This document shows positions 2,685 to 52,262 of a stretch of 64,000 bases of DNA, piece by piece. A program made the translations under genes and the position numbers. The stretch is from a virus, in IMG/VR virus record IMGVR_UViG_3300021957_000015, positions 15,170 through 79,169 of that record; one strand, given 5' to 3'. The notes under the pieces were generated by a model. The model had not been told where the DNA came from. It made no database searches and saw nothing but the letters and a program-made list of their open reading frames with translations. The stretch's first letter is position 1. The number at the start of each line of letters is the position of its first letter.

Positions 2685-4181
2685 ATGGATTTAGAACATA
2701 ATATTTTAGCAGTAGTAGAACCAGCTTTAATGCCAACAGAAATAGAAATGTATGCTGCTGGCGAAGAAGAAGGTGGTGATAAACAAACTAAGAACACTGG
2801 TAATATTGAGCCATTTATAATGGTAAATAAATACGTTTTTGGTAGAGACAATATACAAAGCGTAGAATTAGATTTATCTGGAATTGTGCCTAAGTGCGAA
2901 ATTTCAGTTATTGATAATAAACAAGCGTTTGACGTTGATCACTATCCTAGAGACGGTGATTCTTTCGTTATTTTATTCAATTCTAAGAATCAAGAAACCT
3001 TTAAATCTATTCATATGGATTTCGATATTACTGAAATAACAAATGAACGAGAAGTTGATGGTGAACCAGCTACAATTAACATGAGTGGCATTGCTAAAGT
3101 ACCTAAACTGTTTGCAGAAAATTGTCAAACACTAGACTCAGCTGGATCATTAGATCATTTAGAAATGGTAGCAAGAGAACTTAAATTAGGTTTAGCAACT
3201 AACATAGATGCTACTGATGATAGCCAATCTAGAATACAAGCATATGAAACTTATTTAGACTTTATAAAATCTATAGCTAAAGATTCATATATCGATGAAG
3301 ATTCATTTACTAAATTTTATATAGATCAATATTATTACTTAAACTATGTTGAAGTTAATAAGATTTTTAACTCATCTAACCCTGACATAAACGATTTACA
3401 AGTAGCGTTAGCATCTGCTGCGGTTTCTTATGGAGAAAATGGAGACGATGAAGGAAGAGATGCTGATGATCTTGAGATGCCATTAATGCTTACTAACAAC
3501 AGGGAAATACAGGGATTAAACAACTACGCAGATAAAGTAGAACTTATTAACAATTCAAGTAAAATTAGTTTAAAGGCTGGTAATAAAAGAAATGTGATGA
3601 TCTATGATAATAATAGTGATTCTGATAGGTTGCAACAATTTGACATAGAGCCATTAAGTTCTACTAATCTTAGAGATATTGAAGAGCCATTAAAGGGTAA
3701 AAGAACAGAAGAACGTTATCAAGAAAATGTTAAGTTTAAGTATATGGGTAGACAAAACGCTGGAGATGATGGTTTAGGTAATACACATAAGAATGCGATC
3801 TACTCTAAATTATTTCAAAAGCAAAATGAAATGGAAACACAGAAAATGAAAGTAAAGGTTACTTTAAGTAGTTTTAACCCTGCGCTTTATAAGTTTCAAA
3901 AGATTCCATTGCTTATGTACCATTATGATGCTGTTAAAATTAAGGCGGCAGAAGAGGCTCAAGCTAAACAAGATGAGGCTGGTTTTACTGATCAGTCTAT
4001 AATACCAGATACGGGTGAAAGAGAAGAAGAATCAAATTCACAAGTAGTAGATAGATTTTTAACAGGATTCTATATTATAGAAAATATAAATATAAATTAT
4101 GACTTAGACTCTGGCCTTAGTCAAGAGGTTACACTTATTAGGAGAGAATGGCCTACTAAAGTAGCAGATTTAAAGGAATAG
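2685..4181 (+). CDS. Putative baseplate hub protein (gp27/GpD-like)
   Basis: 498 aa, between gp53-like and gp5-like genes; C-terminal LTGFYIIENI...SQEVTLIRREW is typical of hub proteins. Confidence 0.55.
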   Translation: MDLEHNILAVVEPALMPTEIEMYAAGEEEGGDKQTKNTGNIEPFIMVNKYVFGRDNIQSVELDLSGIVPKCEISVIDNKQAFDVDHYPRDGDSFVILFNSKNQETFKSIHMDFDITEITNEREVDGEPATINMSGIAKVPKLFAENCQTLDSAGSLDHLEMVARELKLGLATNIDATDDSQSRIQAYETYLDFIKSIAKDSYIDEDSFTKFYIDQYYYLNYVEVNKIFNSSNPDINDLQVALASAAVSYGENGDDEGRDADDLEMPLMLTNNREIQGLNNYADKVELINNSSKISLKAGNKRNVMIYDNNSDSDRLQQFDIEPLSSTNLRDIEEPLKGKRTEERYQENVKFKYMGRQNAGDDGLGNTHKNAIYSKLFQKQNEMETQKMKVKVTLSSFNPALYKFQKIPLLMYHYDAVKIKAAEEAQAKQDEAGFTDQSIIPDTGEREEESNSQVVDRFLTGFYIIENININYDLDSGLSQEVTLIRREWPTKVADLKE

Positions 4182-39404: not shown

Positions 39405-39431
39405 GAAACAATTAGGAACTAAGATATATAA
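39405..39431 (+). promoter_or_regulatory. GAAAC-N17-TATAA promoter motif overlapping GATATATAA
   Basis: GAAAC aattaggaactaagata TATAA. Confidence 0.6.
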
Positions 39432-43910: not shown

Positions 43911-45740
43911 ATGGATAAATTAAAAAACTTCGAGCAATTTGCTAAGGTAAAAACCGAACGTGATGCCGCTCAATTAAAAGAAGAGCAAGATTCTAAAAGA
44001 TCAGCAGAAGCTAATACCTTCAAATCTCTTTTATCAGAATTCAATGTCACTTCTATTAAAGAATTATCAGAAGATCAAAAATCTGAATTTTTTACTAAAC
44101 TAAGAGGTGTTGAGGTTTCTGAATCCTTTTTAATTATAGAAGGAACTAGAGGACAGTTTGGTAAAATAGACAAAAAAGGTAACATAGAATCAGTGTATAC
44201 ACATTACGACTCATATCCTGATAACATGCTACCACTTATCAAGAAAACATATTTAAAAGGTGGTTCACCTCTAAATATGGTTCTTAAAAATGGAGATAAT
44301 TCAGGTTTAGAAGCTGATCCAAGAGGAATGAACTACTACGGAGACTCCGATAATATGAAAGGTAACGTTAAAAACATTGACAGATACATTTCAACAGCAG
44401 GCGATAAAGGTGGTGCAGAATTCATTTACCTTTTTGATGAAAAATCAGGAAAGTGGTTAATGGCAGACATATATGCAGGTGATAAAGATTTAAAACCAGC
44501 ATTTGAATCTGTAGAAATTAATGAAGCTATTAAAGTAGAAGGTAAGAGAGATGCTAAGAAAGTAGTAACTCAGTATAATCAAATTTTGTTTTCTAAATTA
44601 AATGCAATCGGTGCATCTAACGATAAGAAGACTTTATTGGGTGCAATTAAAAAATTATTCTTAGATTCAATGGAAGATGCTAATTTCCATAGAGAAAGAG
44701 AAAAGTGTGCAGGCGCTATCAAAGGTAATATAGGATCTATTCCAGTAATAGTTGATGGTTTAGGCAAAATGTCAGTAAACATTGGATCAACAAGAATTAA
44801 AGATGCGTTAGAAAAAGAATATTCTAGAATTTCAAATGCAGCTGGATGGTCAGGTCAAGGTATTGCAGAAGGAACTGCATTATTCTTAGAGCAGTGTGGC
44901 TTTGCTAAAATGGGACAAGATTTACTAGATAGGTTTAACTCTTTCTTTGAAGGTGAAGTAAAAGACAACTTTGAATTTAGAATGTTTGAAACTATTAAAT
45001 ATGCAGAAAGTGTATTAGAAGCTACTGTAGTTATGGATGCAACAGATCCTGGATCTAAAGTATTAAAAAAATTACTTAAGAAACACAAAGTTACAATGGA
45101 GATCATCGATAACGAAGGTCCAACAGGTTTCCCAGAAGTTGAATTAACGGGTTCAAGAGAAGATCTACAATCAGTGTTAGGCTCTGACGATGGTTGGGGT
45201 GATCCTGAATTAGGGGAATACATTGAAGAATCTAACGAAACCTTTAAGATTAAAGTTAAAGCTTTAAATGAAGCTAAATTTGTAAAAGATTTTAATAAAG
45301 ATGTTTTAGGTGCTGAAACTAAAGAAGATATAAAATCTTATTATCCATCAGCTAAATTCTTTATTGGTAAATTGACACACTTCTTTGGAGAACTAGAACC
45401 TAACCTATTCTTTAAAGCTTACTATGCTAGATACTACAAAGAAGATACGGGCAAGAAAATTAAAGGTGACTTTAAAATTACTTCAATCTACTCTGAAAAG
45501 GGTAGTAATTATGTTCACTTACACAATGAATCTGCTAAAACAGTAGAAGCTCCAAAAGTAAACGAAGCAGAAGTTACTTCAGACGAAGAATTTAAAGAGT
45601 ATGCATTTTCAGTATTAAAGAAAGCATTCGGAGATGAATTTGACGAAGATAAGGCAGGTGAAGTTGTAGACGGATTAATTTCTAAAAACTCAGGAGATTA
45701 CGGTGCTATGGTTGGTGCCTTAAAATCATCACTAGGGTAA
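43911..45740 (+). CDS. Modular putative internal-head polyprotein
   Basis: Starts MDKLKNFEQF; domains separated by IIE/INE/VLE/LNE/VNE; YTHYDSYP module; one module shared with 48952-50775. Confidence 0.6.
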   Translation: MDKLKNFEQFAKVKTERDAAQLKEEQDSKRSAEANTFKSLLSEFNVTSIKELSEDQKSEFFTKLRGVEVSESFLIIEGTRGQFGKIDKKGNIESVYTHYDSYPDNMLPLIKKTYLKGGSPLNMVLKNGDNSGLEADPRGMNYYGDSDNMKGNVKNIDRYISTAGDKGGAEFIYLFDEKSGKWLMADIYAGDKDLKPAFESVEINEAIKVEGKRDAKKVVTQYNQILFSKLNAIGASNDKKTLLGAIKKLFLDSMEDANFHREREKCAGAIKGNIGSIPVIVDGLGKMSVNIGSTRIKDALEKEYSRISNAAGWSGQGIAEGTALFLEQCGFAKMGQDLLDRFNSFFEGEVKDNFEFRMFETIKYAESVLEATVVMDATDPGSKVLKKLLKKHKVTMEIIDNEGPTGFPEVELTGSREDLQSVLGSDDGWGDPELGEYIEESNETFKIKVKALNEAKFVKDFNKDVLGAETKEDIKSYYPSAKFFIGKLTHFFGELEPNLFFKAYYARYYKEDTGKKIKGDFKITSIYSEKGSNYVHLHNESAKTVEAPKVNEAEVTSDEEFKEYAFSVLKKAFGDEFDEDKAGEVVDGLISKNSGDYGAMVGALKSSLG

Positions 45741-45751
45741 AAACAATATAT

Positions 45752-45782
45752 AAACTAGAGAGCATAACACTCTCTAGTTTTT
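45752..45782 (+). terminator. Hairpin, probable intrinsic terminator or attenuator
   Basis: AAACTAGAGAG-cataaca-CTCTCTAGTTT (11 bp) followed by T residues. Confidence 0.55.
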
Positions 45783-45795
45783 ACTTTCAACTACT

Positions 45796-47067
45796 ATGAA
45801 AATATATACAGACTTTAGTACATTTATAACTGAAAGGGTTCATTTACAAGAATCTAATTTAATATTAGAAGGTGGAGCAGCCGGCCACATGTCACACCCG
45901 TTTGATAACAAGTCATTGACATTCGGCGATTTTAAAAAGCTTATAGAATCTGGATTAAGTGGAGAACTTAATTTTGAAGAAGATCCTACTGAAAAAACAG
46001 ATGGCCAAAATTTATTTGCAACTGTTAAAGATGGAGAAACAATGTTTGCCAGAAATAAGGGTCAAATGAAAAATCCAATAGACCTAAACGGTATTATTAA
46101 GATGTTTACTGGTCACGCTTCTAAATTAGTAGAAGAAACATATATTTTTGCAGCAAAAGATTTAGCTGACGCTTTACCAAAACTTAAGGATCAATCAATG
46201 TTTGCAAACGGATTAAATTTCGTTAACATGGAATTGATCTACTCTAAAAATCCCAACGTGATATATTATGATAGAGATGTTATTCAATTTCACAATATAA
46301 CAGAAACAGACGGAGAAGGTAATCAAACAGGAACTCAAAATTTAGCAACAGAATTAGTAGGTGCTTTAAAAGAATTAAAGAAAGATGTTCAAAACACATT
46401 TACTATAATTCCACCACAAGTATTAAAGATTGCTAAAGACGTTGACTTTGAAGCAAACAAGTCAAAATTCATTAAACAAGTAGAAGCATTAAAGAATCGT
46501 TATAAATTAACAGATGCTGACGAAGTTTCCAGATATCATGAAATGTGGTGGAGAGAAACGATAGACACAAATTTCCCTGATCTAGAACAAAACCATAAAG
46601 AAGGTTTATTATTAAGATGGGCATATGGCGATAAGAAAACTTTAAACTTAAGATCATTAGACAAAGCTATCGGTAAAGACAAAGCTGCACTAATTAAGAA
46701 GTTTGATAAAGAAGATGTTAAAAAGAAGTATAAAGAAAACATTAGACCATTTGAAGATCTATTCTTAGAATTAGGATCAGTAATCTTGAAAAACGCAAGT
46801 AACTTTGTAGCTGCATCGCCAGATAAAGAAATGCAAAGACTACATAATCAAATTAGAACTGAAGCTGCTAAGATTAAAAAATCAGGTGGAATTGATCAGA
46901 TTAAAAAAGTTGAAGCTGAACTTGCTAGACTAGAAAGAATCGGTGGAATAGAGTCTATTATACCAACTGAAGGTTTAGTTTTTAAATATAAGGGACATAC
47001 TTATAAACTAACTGGAACTTTTGCTGCAATTAATCAATTAATGGGAATTATTAAATACGGTAGATAA
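45796..47067 (+). CDS. RNA-ligase-like covalent nucleotidyltransferase (DUF6267-like)
   Basis: Motif I TEKTDGQN, motif IV EGLVF, motif V YKLTG; N-terminal MKIYTDFSTFITE...LILEGGAAGHMSHPFD. Confidence 0.6.
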   Translation: MKIYTDFSTFITERVHLQESNLILEGGAAGHMSHPFDNKSLTFGDFKKLIESGLSGELNFEEDPTEKTDGQNLFATVKDGETMFARNKGQMKNPIDLNGIIKMFTGHASKLVEETYIFAAKDLADALPKLKDQSMFANGLNFVNMELIYSKNPNVIYYDRDVIQFHNITETDGEGNQTGTQNLATELVGALKELKKDVQNTFTIIPPQVLKIAKDVDFEANKSKFIKQVEALKNRYKLTDADEVSRYHEMWWRETIDTNFPDLEQNHKEGLLLRWAYGDKKTLNLRSLDKAIGKDKAALIKKFDKEDVKKKYKENIRPFEDLFLELGSVILKNASNFVAASPDKEMQRLHNQIRTEAAKIKKSGGIDQIKKVEAELARLERIGGIESIIPTEGLVFKYKGHTYKLTGTFAAINQLMGIIKYGR

Positions 47068-47069
47068 CA

Positions 47070-48914
47070 ATGGCATTACAGAACTTAAAAACATATTTTG
47101 AATCAACTAATATCAATGACTTTAAAAAGTTACTAGATAATATTTGCGTCGTAACCGAAAAGGTACAAGCTTCAAGTTTTCATGTTAGAAGAGATGAGAT
47201 TGACGTTTTTGAATTTTTTAAAAGCGGTTCAAAAACACCTATTAATAAAGTAGACAGAACGTTAGTAAAATATTATGAAAACGGAATTAAACACTTTAAC
47301 ACAATATCAGATGTTATTCTAAATGAAATGCCAAAGGATTGGAAATTCGGGTTTGATTACATGTTAGAAACCAAAACTGTAGATATAGAATATGACAATG
47401 TTCCTAAAAACAATCTTATATTAACACATATACAGGTTTTAAATCCTTCAGATCCCTCTAAAGTAAAAAAAGTAATTAGAGATCCTAGAATTTTAGAAAA
47501 ATGGGCTGGTTTATTAGATGTACAGCCAATATCTGTACTTTTTCAAGGTCAATTGGCATCTAATCAGAAAGATGACTTAATATCATTATTATCACTGGGC
47601 ACTGAAGAATTTAAAAAGAAATTTAAAAACCAATCTTTTACAAGAACTATTTATCACATATTCGATAACGGTAGAAATAAGTCAGCATTAAACTTGGATT
47701 TAGATAAAGACATTGATGCGCTAGTTATTAATTTTTATGAAGATAGGACACCTAAAAGTTTTAAGCTAGAAAGATTCGATAGAGAATCTGCACCAAATAG
47801 AAAATCATCAGACATGTATCAAATATCGATACTAGATTTAGTTGAATTCTTAACTTCATTTGATTTATCAGATATAAAATTAAAAGAAGAAAAGGCGGAT
47901 TTAAGATATGTAGAACTAATTTCATCTATATTTAATGCGTATGTTGAAAAGCATGCTACAAAATATGTAGGCGCTGATTTTGATTCAGCTGATTTTGCAG
48001 AAGGAGAATCATTTGAACTTAATACAGCATTTATGTCAAATGAAAAAACAATATCACTTGTACAAAATAAAGTACTAGCTGAATTGTTCAAAATAGCATT
48101 AGGATCTTTTAGAAAAAAGAGAACTAAAGAAACAGATATCATTAACGCAGATTTATTATCTCAAATTAATGAAATAGTTGAAGAAATAGATACTATTGTA
48201 ATGGGTAAAACAAATGAAAAAGATGTAATGGATTTTAAAAAATATCTAATTAATCAAAAACTAAATGGAGATGTAAGTCCAATAATGGAAGGATTAACTG
48301 TAAATTATCCAGATCAAGGTAAAAAGCCAGTCAATATGTTTGTCGGTAGATTTCAACCGTTCACATTAGGACATGCTAAAGTAATAGACACTATCAGCAA
48401 ACAAAATGGACACCCTGTTGTTGTAATATTGATTAAATCAAAGACTAAGAAAAAAGAAGATGCGTTTAAAAGACCATACGACGAGGAAACTCAATTAGCA
48501 ATGCTTAATAAATTAAAGTCTAAATACCCAATAGAAAAAGTATACATTTTAGATAGAGCTGCAATAGATTACATGTTTAACGCAATGCGAGCAGATGGTT
48601 ACGAACCAGTGCTTTGGGGAACAGGAACAGATAGACTTAAAACATATTCGTATCAAGTTGATAAACCAGAATATAGAGAATCTTTAAATTGTAGAGAAGA
48701 TTTCGGTTTATTTGAAATCCCTAGATCTGGTAAAAACATTTCAGCAACACAGGTTAGAAATGCAATGTTAGACGGTGATGAAAAAACATTTAAAAAATTA
48801 ACACCTAGACCAATTCATGGTATGTATACTGAATTGAGAACAAAATTAGAGGTTTCTATGGGTGTCGCAGAGTCAAAATTCATGACATTTGAACAGTTTG
48901 TGAAGAAAGACTAA
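47070..48914 (+). CDS. Degenerate ligase-like domain fused to HxGH-type (cytidyltransferase/NMNAT-like) nucleotidyltransferase
   Basis: N-terminal VTEKVQASSF; C-terminal domain VGRFQPFTLGH...GTDR...ISATQVR; ends FMTFEQFVKKD. Confidence 0.7.
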   Translation: MALQNLKTYFESTNINDFKKLLDNICVVTEKVQASSFHVRRDEIDVFEFFKSGSKTPINKVDRTLVKYYENGIKHFNTISDVILNEMPKDWKFGFDYMLETKTVDIEYDNVPKNNLILTHIQVLNPSDPSKVKKVIRDPRILEKWAGLLDVQPISVLFQGQLASNQKDDLISLLSLGTEEFKKKFKNQSFTRTIYHIFDNGRNKSALNLDLDKDIDALVINFYEDRTPKSFKLERFDRESAPNRKSSDMYQISILDLVEFLTSFDLSDIKLKEEKADLRYVELISSIFNAYVEKHATKYVGADFDSADFAEGESFELNTAFMSNEKTISLVQNKVLAELFKIALGSFRKKRTKETDIINADLLSQINEIVEEIDTIVMGKTNEKDVMDFKKYLINQKLNGDVSPIMEGLTVNYPDQGKKPVNMFVGRFQPFTLGHAKVIDTISKQNGHPVVVILIKSKTKKKEDAFKRPYDEETQLAMLNKLKSKYPIEKVYILDRAAIDYMFNAMRADGYEPVLWGTGTDRLKTYSYQVDKPEYRESLNCREDFGLFEIPRSGKNISATQVRNAMLDGDEKTFKKLTPRPIHGMYTELRTKLEVSMGVAESKFMTFEQFVKKD

Positions 48915-48951
48915 TATATAGTATAAGAATATAAAATATAGAAAATTAAAA

Positions 48952-50775
48952 ATGAAAAAATTCGAAGAATTTATCGGTGAAGGTAAAATCACTTTAAAGA
49001 GAAGATATACTGAAAACCACCCTGCAGTTACCGCAGGAACACACGCAAAAATTAGAAATAAAGTATTAGAAGCTATCGCTGATGGAACTTTAACTCAAGA
49101 AGAATTCGATAATATTCTAAAAGAGATGTCAAGCAATTCTGGTAGATGGATGAGAAGAAACGCAAAATACTTTAATGTGGCAGAATCTGGAATATCTCTT
49201 TCTAAATTTGGAAGAAAGATACTTAACACTATCAGTATATCTGAAGCAGAGATTGAAGAAGGTAATGCTTTCGGTGATGCTGTAAGAAAAGCCAAAGAAA
49301 ACGGAGACAAAGAATTCGAATTTGATGGTAAAACCTACCCAGTAAAAGAAGGTAGAGGATTTGTTGCGGCTGCTAAAAAAGCAAAAGACGCAGGTGAAAA
49401 AGAATTCGAATTTAATGGTAAAACATTTCCAGTTTTAATCAAAGAAGACGAAGAAGTTGAAGAATCAGTAGTTACTGAAGACTCACTTTCAGGTATAGAA
49501 TTTGGAAACGATGATGACATACACCCAACTGAATTTAAACCATTAGTTAAATCTTTAAAGAAGAACAAAGTTAAAATGGAAGTTGAAAAAGAAGAAGGAT
49601 CACATGGATATCCTGAAGTTAAATTAACCGGTAAAAGAAAAGATATCGAAAATGTTTTGGCTGATGTATGGGGTCCAGACTCAGTTTCTGATTATGAAGA
49701 TTACTTTGAATCAGTAGTTACTGAATCGACAGAAGATACTGAATCGACAGAAGATACTAAATCTAATCATATACACGAATCTTTTTCAAGTTTCGTAGAA
49801 AGCTTAAATGAAGCTTTTGGTTCAATGAAGCTTTCTAAGTTATTTACAAACACTAGGGGTAAAGTTGATAAAGCATTATCAGGTGCATTTTATGGTAAAA
49901 CTAAAGTTGCTTTAGATAAAGTACAGGATGAAGATCTTATTGATACTGATCCAATGACAGCGTACAAGGCAAAACAAACAAATACTATTGTTTTTTACAT
50001 CTCAGATAATGAGAAACCTAATCCATATGCACCGAGCGATGCATACAGTTCTGATAAAGTTATTCCAGGTGGAAGTTACTTATTAGCTGTAGCAAGTGGA
50101 GGTAATGAATTTTACACAAACACATGGACTAGCAGATATTCTAGTAGAGACAGAGACAGAACTCTAAAAACTACTCCTAATAATTCAAGTGATACTATTG
50201 GTATTTCTAAGAAGTACAAAGGATGGGATGCAACTGGTCTTTACAATGTAAAAAGAATTGCAGAAGTTGCAGATAGAGCAGTTGTTATCAATATAGATCT
50301 ATTACAACAAAAATATTCTACAGCTAATAAAAGATCTGAAAGATCAAGCGCTAAAGCTGGTGCGATTGCATTTAAATCTGATAAAGACTTTAAACAAGAA
50401 AACAAAAACAGATATACTCAAATCTTAGCTACTAAAGCAGCTGCATTGCCATTAGATAAAATGGTTTCAGCGGCAATCGATGAATTAGCTAAACAAATTC
50501 AAGATGGTTTGAAAGCTGGAGAGAAAACAGAATACGGAGAAATCTACATTGGTAAAAACAAAAGAGGTTCTACTGTAAAATTAAAAGATGCTTCTTCACA
50601 CATGTCATCCATCTTAGACGATTACTCAAGATACTGTGATTATATCGCAAGATCTGAAGAGTCTGAAAAGAGATACGGTACAGGTGAAAGATGGTACGAA
50701 AGAGAAGCTAAGACATACGCTAAATCTATTAAAGATAGAATTAACAAAATCAAAACTTTCGATTACGCTTGGTAA
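48952..50775 (+). CDS. Modular putative internal-head polyprotein
   Basis: Starts MKKFEEFIGE; two tandem AK..G.KEFEF.GKT.PV units; ESVVTE-flanked module; internal HESFSSFVESLNE. Confidence 0.6.
   Translation: MKKFEEFIGEGKITLKRRYTENHPAVTAGTHAKIRNKVLEAIADGTLTQEEFDNILKEMSSNSGRWMRRNAKYFNVAESGISLSKFGRKILNTISISEAEIEEGNAFGDAVRKAKENGDKEFEFDGKTYPVKEGRGFVAAAKKAKDAGEKEFEFNGKTFPVLIKEDEEVEESVVTEDSLSGIEFGNDDDIHPTEFKPLVKSLKKNKVKMEVEKEEGSHGYPEVKLTGKRKDIENVLADVWGPDSVSDYEDYFESVVTESTEDTESTEDTKSNHIHESFSSFVESLNEAFGSMKLSKLFTNTRGKVDKALSGAFYGKTKVALDKVQDEDLIDTDPMTAYKAKQTNTIVFYISDNEKPNPYAPSDAYSSDKVIPGGSYLLAVASGGNEFYTNTWTSRYSSRDRDRTLKTTPNNSSDTIGISKKYKGWDATGLYNVKRIAEVADRAVVINIDLLQQKYSTANKRSERSSAKAGAIAFKSDKDFKQENKNRYTQILATKAAALPLDKMVSAAIDELAKQIQDGLKAGEKTEYGEIYIGKNKRGSTVKLKDASSHMSSILDDYSRYCDYIARSEESEKRYGTGERWYEREAKTYAKSIKDRINKIKTFDYAW
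49462..49725 (+). repeat. 18-bp perfect direct repeats flanking a protein module
   Basis: GAATCAGTAGTTACTGAA at 49462-49479 and 49708-49725, both encoding ESVVTE. Confidence 0.9.
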
Positions 50776-51356: not shown

Positions 51357-52262
51357 ATGGCAAAGATATTTTACGTAAGAGAAAGATCTGGAGATTATGC
51401 TCAGGTTAATTTTTTTAAAACAGAAAAAGAAGCATTAAACTACGGTATATCTGAATGGCCAGACTTCGATATGTTTGGTGACGAAGAAGATGAAGACGAT
51501 TCATATGACATGGATAATGATACATGGTGGGTTGGAGATTCAATAGACTTTAAGAAAGGCATTTTATTTTCGTTTGAAGAAGGTATGGTTTATGTTCAAG
51601 GAATGGACGATGCCGCTGCAAGAGAATATGTTAAAGAAGAAGTTGGAGAATATGGCGCTGCTATTTTCTTTGATGGTTTCAAAAAAGGAATGTATGGTTA
51701 CTTAGGTAATGGTGCAGACGGTAAAGGTTACAAATGGGACTGGGACGGCATAGACTTAAATGAAAGTTCTAAACCACATTCTTTTAAAAGATTTTTAGAA
51801 AACATTACACCTTCTAATATGGCAGGTATGGGACCAGTTGCTTTACCAGTTTCAGGTGCTGATGGTTCAGGAGATGTGCCTGCCGGACAAGGCGATGCCG
51901 AAGATGAATTTGAAAAGGCAAAAAAAGAGAAAGAGGCTAGAGATAAAAAGAAAGCCAACAACGAATCTTTTGTAAAAAGCTTTGAATCATTTTCATTTGA
52001 TTTTGAAGGCATAGATATTAAAAATCCATTTACAGATGAGACTGCAAGGATGGATGTAGATCCAAAACAGTATTACGGAAAGGAATACGCTAAGTCAGAT
52101 ATTAAAAAGATAGTTGACGCTAGTGAAGAATTTATTAGTAAATATAAAGAATGGAAAGAATATCAACCATTAGATGCAGATGAAGATATGCATGCTGATT
52201 ATGGTGAACATATAAAAGCATCTCTAGATAAATTAACAACATTAGTTAAAAAATTAGGATAA
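51357..52262 (+). CDS. Acidic modular hypothetical protein
   Basis: Internal LNESSKPHSFKRFLE and NESFVKSFESF motifs. Confidence 0.6.
   Translation: MAKIFYVRERSGDYAQVNFFKTEKEALNYGISEWPDFDMFGDEEDEDDSYDMDNDTWWVGDSIDFKKGILFSFEEGMVYVQGMDDAAAREYVKEEVGEYGAAIFFDGFKKGMYGYLGNGADGKGYKWDWDGIDLNESSKPHSFKRFLENITPSNMAGMGPVALPVSGADGSGDVPAGQGDAEDEFEKAKKEKEARDKKKANNESFVKSFESFSFDFEGIDIKNPFTDETARMDVDPKQYYGKEYAKSDIKKIVDASEEFISKYKEWKEYQPLDADEDMHADYGEHIKASLDKLTTLVKKLG

Follow-up and report, generated by a model that had tools for sequence, protein, structure and literature searches.

The internal proteins of bacteriophage T4 carry a conserved leader that serves for targeting and cleavage, are processed by the gp21 protease and are encoded at hypervariable loci (PMC3012670, PMC2839356, PMC12373910, PMC5694885). 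The conserved leader region has also been tied to the shuffling of genes, at least in the accounts that later papers give of the original work (Repoila et al. 1994, via PMC2839356 and PMC12373910; PMC3012670). Here we describe two modular proteins of 609 and 607 amino acids (aa) from an uncultured virus, in which a short linker recurs between domains and appears to be both a point of recombination and a candidate protease site. Both are encoded in the window, by which we mean the whole stretch of 64,000 nucleotides (nt) that was analysed (bases 15170-79169 of the 79-kb linear IMG/VR viral contig IMGVR_UViG_3300021957_000015, which is ~29% complete). Like T4 IPI, IPII, IPIII and Alt, the 607-aa protein has a short leader ending in aliphatic-x-Glu and a content that is variable and dispensable among relatives; a gp21-type S77 protease is encoded in contigs of relatives. 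The locus differs from T4, which uses one gene and one leader for each cargo protein, in that several domains are fused and the leader-like site recurs as a linker. Additionally, exchange takes place here inside reading frames on an 18-nt linker, whereas in T4 it takes place between genes at promoter-like elements, and cleavage, packaging and anti-restriction activity have been proven for the T4 internal proteins, whereas cleavage and packaging are predictions for the present system. The apparent novelty relative to T4 is the reuse of one site as internal linker and recombination point. The original prediction held that such a loading system was not known to be described; this stands for the in-frame fusion of several domains, and it does not stand for the pairing of a leader with hypervariable loci, which the T4 internal proteins already have. 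No paper containing the motif strings turned up in the literature.

In the giant phages phiKZ, 201phi2-1 and SPN3US many head proteins are cleaved by a T4-related prohead protease, after the Glu of a short motif; there are proteins with more than one cut site, and paralogues have conserved N-terminal propeptides in common (PMC5694885, PMC10052503). The phiKZ-type motif is Ser/Ala/Gly-x-Glu or Ala-x-Glu, whereas the P3 residue here is Val, Ile or Leu. The phiKZ-type propeptides are longer than 100 aa and are removed by cutting, which is unlike the separation of a chain of cargo domains, and linker-mediated cassette swapping is not reported for the processed proteins of these phages. The protease expected of this type is of the S80 family, whereas the protease of the present lineage scores as S77 and reaches S80 at the cut-off only. 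PeSLs are short conserved DNA motifs that act as recombination points for the insertion, deletion and replacement of small modules in the hyperplastic regions of T4-like phages (PMC2839356, PMC4122927); they are intergenic promoter-terminator stem-loops that move whole genes, whereas the motif described here is coding, lies in frame and moves protein domains. Viral polyproteins cut by a virus-encoded protease, e.g. in picornaviruses, are alike in working only, as one frame holds several functional units split by short protease sites; they differ in belonging to RNA viruses, their protease is unrelated, the order of their domains is fixed and they are not loaded into a capsid.

The genes for the 609-aa protein (43911-45740) and the 607-aa protein (48952-50775) are open reading frames (ORFs) on the + strand of the window, as are all of their features given below. 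In the 607-aa protein a cassette slot of variable content separates the conserved N-terminal part from the conserved C-terminal part. Two exact, in-frame copies of the 18-mer GAATCAGTAGTTACTGAA, encoding ESVVTE, are located at 49462-49479 (repeat 1) and 49708-49725 (repeat 2), with a start-to-start distance of 246 nt or 82 codons. These are the only two copies in the 64-kb window, where the chance expectation is 0.01, and two copies were reached in 0 of 100 shuffles. Repeat 2 is directly followed by two degenerate 18-nt tandem copies of the linker (STEDTE and STEDTK, 49726-49764). The cassette between the repeats (49480-49707, aa 177-252) is a copy of a module that is shared with the 609-aa protein (45021-45233, aa 371-441), where it immediately follows the linker AESVLE (aa 365-370, 45003-45020); BLASTP of these two segments gave 54 bits and an E of 8e-12.

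The content of the slot varies among the closest orthologues of the 607-aa protein. These share the first ~165 and the last ~330 residues, with flanking DNA that is 81-94% identical, and their slot is either empty or filled by an unrelated module, in one or two copies, or by a third module. DNA homology between orthologues ends at gene nt 497-513 and restarts at 809-853, and repeat 1 starts at gene nt 511; in the closest orthologue (L004) homology stops at gene nt 513. The cassette was also found in the other gene of another phage. Window 49462-49727 matches L014:3846-4111 (96.6% identity, 266 nt) and window 49459-49725 matches L014:3597-3863 (94% identity, 267 nt), both matches being tandem cassettes within the 609-type gene of L014, whereas elsewhere the two phages are 74% identical over 8.9 kb. 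Homology of the cassette to L014 starts at 49462, and homology to L014, L010 and L017 ends at 49725-49727, i.e. at the linkers. In L010 and L017 the cassette is 84-87% identical and again terminates at linkers, and between L010 and the window two module types are swapped between the two genes.

Contigs of four sequencing runs, examined as assembled contigs, were aligned to the 607-aa gene. In run X6, an independent metagenome, a 274-nt contig with a depth of 33 joins position 49472 to position 49737; 264 nt are skipped, there is an overlap of 7 nt, and the joint reads in frame as one ESVVTE and then STEDTK. This contig is a natural empty-slot allele, with one linker and one tandem unit fewer. 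Contigs of other runs agree with the window up to 49725 and then diverge into other domains. Both junctions of the window cassette are bridged (upstream by an X7 contig, 49091-49689; downstream by an X5 contig, 49569-50064, with 0 mismatches), and runs from three studies contain 95-97% of the sampled words of the 607-aa gene.

The motif ES[VIL][VIL][TN]E occurs 206 times in 454,764 aa of collected proteins and locus ORFs, against 0.9 expected. The residue after the motif is mostly Ala, Ser, Lys or Gly, and dozens of unrelated segments are found downstream. As read from these sequences, the linker most often takes the form ESVV(T/N)E; more generally it is aliphatic-x-Glu, with Ala, Ser or Gly as the next residue. 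When the proteins were split at the strict motif and clustered, 39 linker-bounded segment families were obtained, a rough count in which single linkage merged multidomain pieces. Within the 79-kb contig the motif is limited to two leaders, the 607-aa protein and a 1240-aa protein, and none of the tail and replication enzymes of the contig carries it. The codons of the linker were examined in 101 non-redundant DNA copies. Ser is encoded by TCA in 76% (background 28%, from the codon usage of the window) and Thr by ACT in 47 of 51 (background 42%), and in the Val-Val pair GTA is used first in 77/82 and GTT second in 77/82; most of the control motifs vary more in their codons than the linker does. 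This uniformity at synonymous sites agrees with a linker that recombination has copied and kept homogeneous.

On this evidence it is very probable that the linker is the place at which domain cassettes are gained, lost and duplicated and pass from one gene or phage to another, and the process of exchange fits recombination on short homology. The original prediction had proposed that one module is common to both genes and flanked by 18-bp repeats, that linker DNA doubles as recombination homology, that gain and loss would break at the linkers and that variants deleted between the repeats might exist. The module and the two exact repeats were confirmed, and the breakpoints in the orthologue alignment fall at hydrophobic-x-Glu linkers, with a domain content that is variable. 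The proposed role of the linker DNA is supported by the presence of the cassette and both of its flanks, at 94-97% DNA identity, inside another gene of a phage that is otherwise 74% identical, and by linker codons that are more uniform than codon bias explains. The deletion is represented by one contig-level allele, that of run X6.

Other segments of the lineage are also found in more than one arrangement. The N-terminal domain of a 301-aa ORF (window 51357-52262) is fused directly to the 607-family C-terminal domain in P0040, P0043 and P0045, and L014:7586-7988 holds this N-terminal domain at 87% nt identity; from the fusions in other phages it follows that domain exchange also crosses neighbouring genes. 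In L014:2289-4406 and in P0149 a ~35-aa Cys-rich mini-cassette (..HPKC..C..C..), which is possibly a zinc ribbon, has an ESVV[TN]E linker on either side. The orthologue of the 607-aa gene in a 212-kb relative (L038:8001-9971) reads through the slot, after which the frame is lost, and it is either a pseudogene or an assembly error.

The residues that precede the domains were counted at ~700 junctions over seven domain families, related sequences included. In six of the families the P1 residue is almost always Glu: 73/73 junctions for the C-terminal domain of the 607-aa protein (aliphatic-x-Glu in each case, with 30 upstream contexts), 134/134 for the C-terminal 3-helix domain of the 609-aa protein (36 distinct upstream contexts), 135/135 for the phrog_1987-type domain, 29/29 for the third domain of the 609-aa protein, 197/200 for a 30-aa mini-domain and 15/15 for the remaining one. 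In the seventh, the 609-type module, Glu is found at 100 of 113 internal starts. The P3 residue is aliphatic (Val, Ile, Leu or Met) in ~90% or more of the junctions, and each domain family has between 6 and 52 distinct upstream contexts. The T4 sites, read from the T4 genome, are FIAE/A, FLTE/A, LIAE/A and LLRE/S (the slash marks the junction here and below). These share the aliphatic-x-Glu form, and the linker fits the cutting rule of T4 gp21.

The N-termini of the proteins show a similar pattern. The leader of the 607-aa protein, MKKFEEFIGE (48952-48981), ends in Ile-x-Glu and resembles the T4 capsid-targeting sequence, with 6 of its 10 residues the same as in the MKTYQEFIAE of T4 IPII/IPIII. 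The strict leader pattern is present at 6 N-termini of the contig, against 0.07 expected. Leaders of orthologues differ widely (MKKFEEFIGE, MDINEEPLEE, ..SNRLNE), yet all end in aliphatic-x-Glu directly before the first domain. Where the module or the C-terminal domain is N-terminal, the protein starts with Met and the same residues or with a leader that resembles the internal linker. Some proteins begin with Met and, next to it, the module, and so read Met-Ala-Thr-Val at the start, comparable to ..E/ATVV at internal copies, and stand-alone C-domain proteins begin with a motif of the type of HESFSSFVESLNE, the internal leader-like linker (49774-49812) that precedes the C-terminal domain of the 607-aa protein (P0102, MKTNFIFESFKEF; P0021, ..TTFIHESFS).

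A candidate protease is present in the relatives. Peptidase_S77 scores above the Pfam cut-off in 4/4 related contigs, beside a T4-type portal and a Gp23 capsid protein, and one of these contigs, G001, carries the locus L038, whose 607-type gene is 94% identical to that of the window in the C-terminal domain. Against S77 the protease reaches 46 bits (cut-off 27) and against S80 23.6 bits (cut-off 23.4), with no single S80 stretch passing. The gene order in the related contigs is portal, small leader-bearing protein, S77 protease-scaffold fusion, Gp23-type capsid protein and leader-bearing protein, so that small leader-bearing genes flank the protease and capsid genes, comparable to gp67 and gp68 in T4. 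In G003, one of the four, the shared module is located inside the protease-scaffold protein, right after ..NLVTE/, and a second relative has only an acidic stretch at the same position of that protein. Argued from these sequences and by analogy with T4, cutting at the linker by the protease together with loading into the capsid is, taken by itself, an evenly balanced proposition.

The fusion of the protease is seen in L087:1447-3648 and L088:1429-3888 (734 and 820 aa), where the S77 protease is joined to a long coiled-coil, acidic, scaffold-like region. In T4, gp21 and gp22 are the products of separate genes.

Models of the two proteins by AlphaFold2 (AF2) are consistent with the idea, put forward in the original prediction, that both are strings of small domains split by linker sites. 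The predicted template modelling score (pTM) of the two is low (0.37 and 0.32), and in both proteins confident domains are split by stretches with a predicted local distance difference test (pLDDT) score of <50 that hold the proposed linker sites. These stretches are aa 1-28, 96-104, 163-175 and 250-281 of the 607-aa protein and aa 64-76, 200-205, 348-368 and 442-553 of the 609-aa protein. In the 607-aa protein they hold 7/15 aliphatic-x-Glu sites in 19% of the residues, a weak enrichment (p = 0.015).

The explanation that we favour is one in which small, independently folding domains are arranged as beads on a string and joined by the conserved linker, and the two 18-bp repeats are the two linkers bounding one exchangeable cassette. 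The linker would be the cutting site of the gp21-type prohead protease of the phage, and the N-terminal MK..F.EF(I/L).E leader would act like the T4 capsid-targeting sequence, so that each protein would enter the prohead as one chain and be cut into separate small proteins at maturation. Products cut after Glu in the window proteins would start with ATVVMDATDPGSK, DSLSGIEFGNDD, AFGSMK or GNAFGDAVR. By analogy with the T4 internal proteins, the leading guess is that the released domains would be anti-defence cargo. To this explanation as a whole, which combines cassette exchange at the linker, gp21-type cutting and prohead loading, we assign a probability of roughly 0.55.

Several observations weigh against it. 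The 609-aa protein starts with MDKLKNFEQFAKV and has no clean leader ending in aliphatic-x-Glu, and some family members begin directly with a domain and have no leader. No S77 protease match was found in the 79-kb contig itself, which represents ~29% of the genome, and the protease is known from the relatives only. Both genes are placed among replication and nucleotide-metabolism genes (UvsY, UvsW, DNA polymerase, ribonucleotide reductase), outside the head module. The modules are acidic, whereas the T4 internal proteins are basic. The related sequences included in the junction counts are not phylogenetically independent, and the invariant Glu and uniform codons could partly have been inherited with the cassettes and not selected. 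The remaining 8/15 aliphatic-x-Glu sites of the 607-aa protein are outside the low-confidence stretches, i.e. the motif occurs inside folded domains too. The portal of the relatives is T4 gp20-like, and as its closest database match is an uncultured 462-kb phage (58%), the lineage is without a cultured close relative. The mature parts of the proteins have no Pfam or PHROG match to the internal proteins IPI, IPII, IPIII or Alt; because no sequence homology was found, the likeness to the T4 internal proteins is one of mechanism and not of family membership.

One alternative is that these are ordinary multidomain cytoplasmic proteins that are never cut and not packaged, in which the linker is a flexible acidic spacer and recombination homology. 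The Glu and the leader-like N-termini would then come from the common descent of the cassettes or serve another purpose, for example to cap a helix or to ease the start of translation. We consider this less likely, and it is the strongest of the alternatives. It agrees with the position of the genes in the replication region and with the leaderless members; neither fold nor function links the domains to the capsid, and the uniform codons of the linker imply copying at the DNA level, which alone could carry the Glu. It does not readily account for the persistence of P1 Glu and aliphatic P3 over the 6-52 upstream contexts of each family, which include contexts without ESVV, or for leaders of differing sequence that all retain aliphatic-x-Glu before the first domain. 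The module within the protease-scaffold protein of one relative and the leader genes that flank the protease and capsid genes argue in the same direction.

A quite improbable alternative is that the proteins are cut by the prohead protease and are assembly helpers of the core or scaffold, comparable to T4 gp22, gp67 and gp68, with fragments that are mostly expelled. The module in the scaffold-protease protein, modules and linkers that are acidic like the T4 core peptides (gp67), and cutting at multiple sites, which is typical of scaffold clearance (PMC5694885), would all suit such a role. However, between close relatives the content of the proteins varies greatly and can be dispensed with, as would seldom be seen in assembly factors, and the domains are folded, conserved and also found as stand-alone genes.

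A selfish in-frame mobile element, moved by a site-specific enzyme (homing endonuclease or recombinase) that recognises the 18-bp sequence, is very improbable. The 18-mer is conserved at synonymous sites and its core, CAGTA-GT-TACTG, holds a 5-bp inverted repeat; however, the cassette itself encodes no enzyme (there is no integrase or endonuclease gene inside), the 39 segment families show that the linker is not the end of one element, and the inverted repeat is lost in the ESVVNE form, which is just as common. Recombination on short homology is in keeping with the tandem duplication and with the 7 nt of overlap where the deletion is joined. The least probable explanation, a metagenome assembly chimera, draws on the fact that all of the sequences are metagenomic contigs and that other genes contain the cassette too, a kind of repetition that can mislead assembly programs, and an artefact of this kind is made unlikely by the X7 and X5 contigs that span the upstream and downstream cassette junctions, by the gene words found in three studies and by the 18-bp repeat being shorter than the usual assembler k-mers.

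The remaining features of the two proteins are as follows. In the 609-aa protein a long N-terminal helix is followed by a phrog_1987-type domain, then by a helical domain and the shared module; a segment that is poorly modelled leads on to the 3-helix C-terminal domain. Homologues of this protein retain or lose aa 1-360, 371-441, 455-545 and 550-609 independently. Besides AESVLE, its linkers are ESFLIIE (aa 71-77, 44121-44141), with the next domain from G78, FESVEINE (aa 198-205, 44502-44525), with the next domain from A206, and APKVNE (aa 547-552, 45549-45566) before the C-terminal domain; position 2 of the phrog_1987 profile aligned to residue 78. The 607-aa protein has an N-terminal domain (aa 29-95, 49036-49236) that AF2 models as winged-helix-like, with weak matches of the MarR/MepR type (Foldseek probability 0.9-0.99 but E >0.1; VIA Z ~7). 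It is followed by two tandem 30-aa mini-domains (49256-49433), each modelled as a helix and a beta-hairpin, which are bounded by IEE/G, VKE/G and IKE/D and correspond to an 88-nt direct repeat of 75% identity. The conserved C-terminal domain (aa 288-607, 49813-50772) ends in a helical bundle; family and fold searches with it gave no significant match, and the ESM Atlas had no usable match for it.

The shared module is predicted by the models to be a small alpha/beta domain, with the fold beta-alpha-beta-beta-alpha(-alpha) and a pLDDT of 82-91 in the 609-type copy. Both copies match positions 35-73 of the 85-position profile phrog_5922, a family of small phage proteins, weakly (E 3.2e-4 and 6.2e-4). 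A profile search of 1.84 billion proteins with the module found 222 cluster representatives of 70-1111 aa, with up to 5 copies in any position, and stand-alone module proteins of 72-107 aa exist. In P0243, a metagenomic protein of 764 aa from a compositionally different lineage, there are five tandem copies of the module; the linker is different and basic, yet it ends ..SYE/VTVD.

Each of the two proteins has >900 homologues, all of them metagenomic and marine wherever the source is recorded (e.g. Tara); those of the 607-aa protein number >950, with its C-terminal 56% conserved. Pfam has no family for either protein, bar one sub-threshold match, and for the 607-aa protein a collection of 50,697 phage records held no tblastn match. 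Foldseek searches of the PDB with both models found nothing at E 0.001 or better. A wide VIA search found, at Z 7-9, only generic helical bundles (aa 472-607) and winged-helix folds (aa 22-104) of the 607-aa protein. The 609-aa model had short matches of a KH-like kind (probability 0.93-0.97, E ~0.4-0.5), which could be assigned to no region.

We infer that the source is an uncultured marine jumbo myovirus with a T4-type head. The GC content is ~32%, and relatives of the 79-kb contig reach 212-250 kb. Baseplate and tail-fibre genes are located upstream of the two modular genes, and a UvsY-like gene, a UvsW helicase, a cytidylyltransferase-like fusion, a DNA polymerase and a ribonucleotide reductase are encoded near both. 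Between the two genes are a 423-aa protein (window 45796-47067), which starts with MKIYTDFSTFITE and has no Pfam match, and a 614-aa protein (window 47070-48914) with a C-terminal cytidylyltransferase-like domain. The N-terminus of the 423-aa protein is leader-like and enzymes may therefore be tagged too. About ten ORFs of the contig start with leaders of the MK..(F/Y)(E/D).F(I/L).E type; leader ORFs are found at window 38290, 50808 and 37235 and at 3755, 4456 and 9392 of L080, which is part of the same contig. The 1240-aa ORF, which is upstream of the window (L080:5042-8764), has cytidyltransferase-like segments and three junction motifs (ESVVTE/K, ESVLNE/E and ESLVNE/G), and it may be a third polyprotein-like gene.

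The sequence GATATATAA is present in 7 copies, all on the + strand (window 8179, 9528, 23345, 31408, 39423, 43868 and 60549), against 2.8 expected, and 7 copies were reached in 3/100 shuffles. Six of the copies are 33-125 nt before a gene start, one of them 43 nt upstream of the 609-aa gene, and the copy at 39423 is ~300 nt before one. By its sequence and placement GATATATAA looks like a promoter element; it says nothing on timing, because both tail genes and gp32-like and ribonucleotide reductase (replication) genes are preceded by it. The sequence TATAAATA is under-represented (6 copies, 17 expected), and the promoters gave no inference on timing.

Irrespective of cleavage, the locus shows in-frame domain cassettes that move between genes on 18 nt of homology, and a 96.6%-identical cassette in a different gene together with a natural empty-slot allele makes this an unusually clear case of ongoing domain shuffling. 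Tentatively, and with a likelihood that we would place slightly short of even, a lineage of marine jumbo phages may load combinatorial polyproteins, in which a single targeting leader would bring a chain of unrelated small domains into the prohead and a 6-residue linker would be both cutting site and, through its conserved 18-nt coding sequence, recombination site for swaps between genes and between phages, giving a reshufflable injected payload that is possibly directed against host defences. If this is true, it would be a natural design for evolving injected payloads, as any domain between two linkers would be loaded, released and exchangeable, and it might be used as a tool to package foreign proteins. 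The scheme of the T4 internal proteins, one of single genes, would also be widened to polyproteins that can be shuffled, and hundreds of orphan domains of uncultured phages that are abundant in the sea would gain a likely location and, with it, a role that can be tested.

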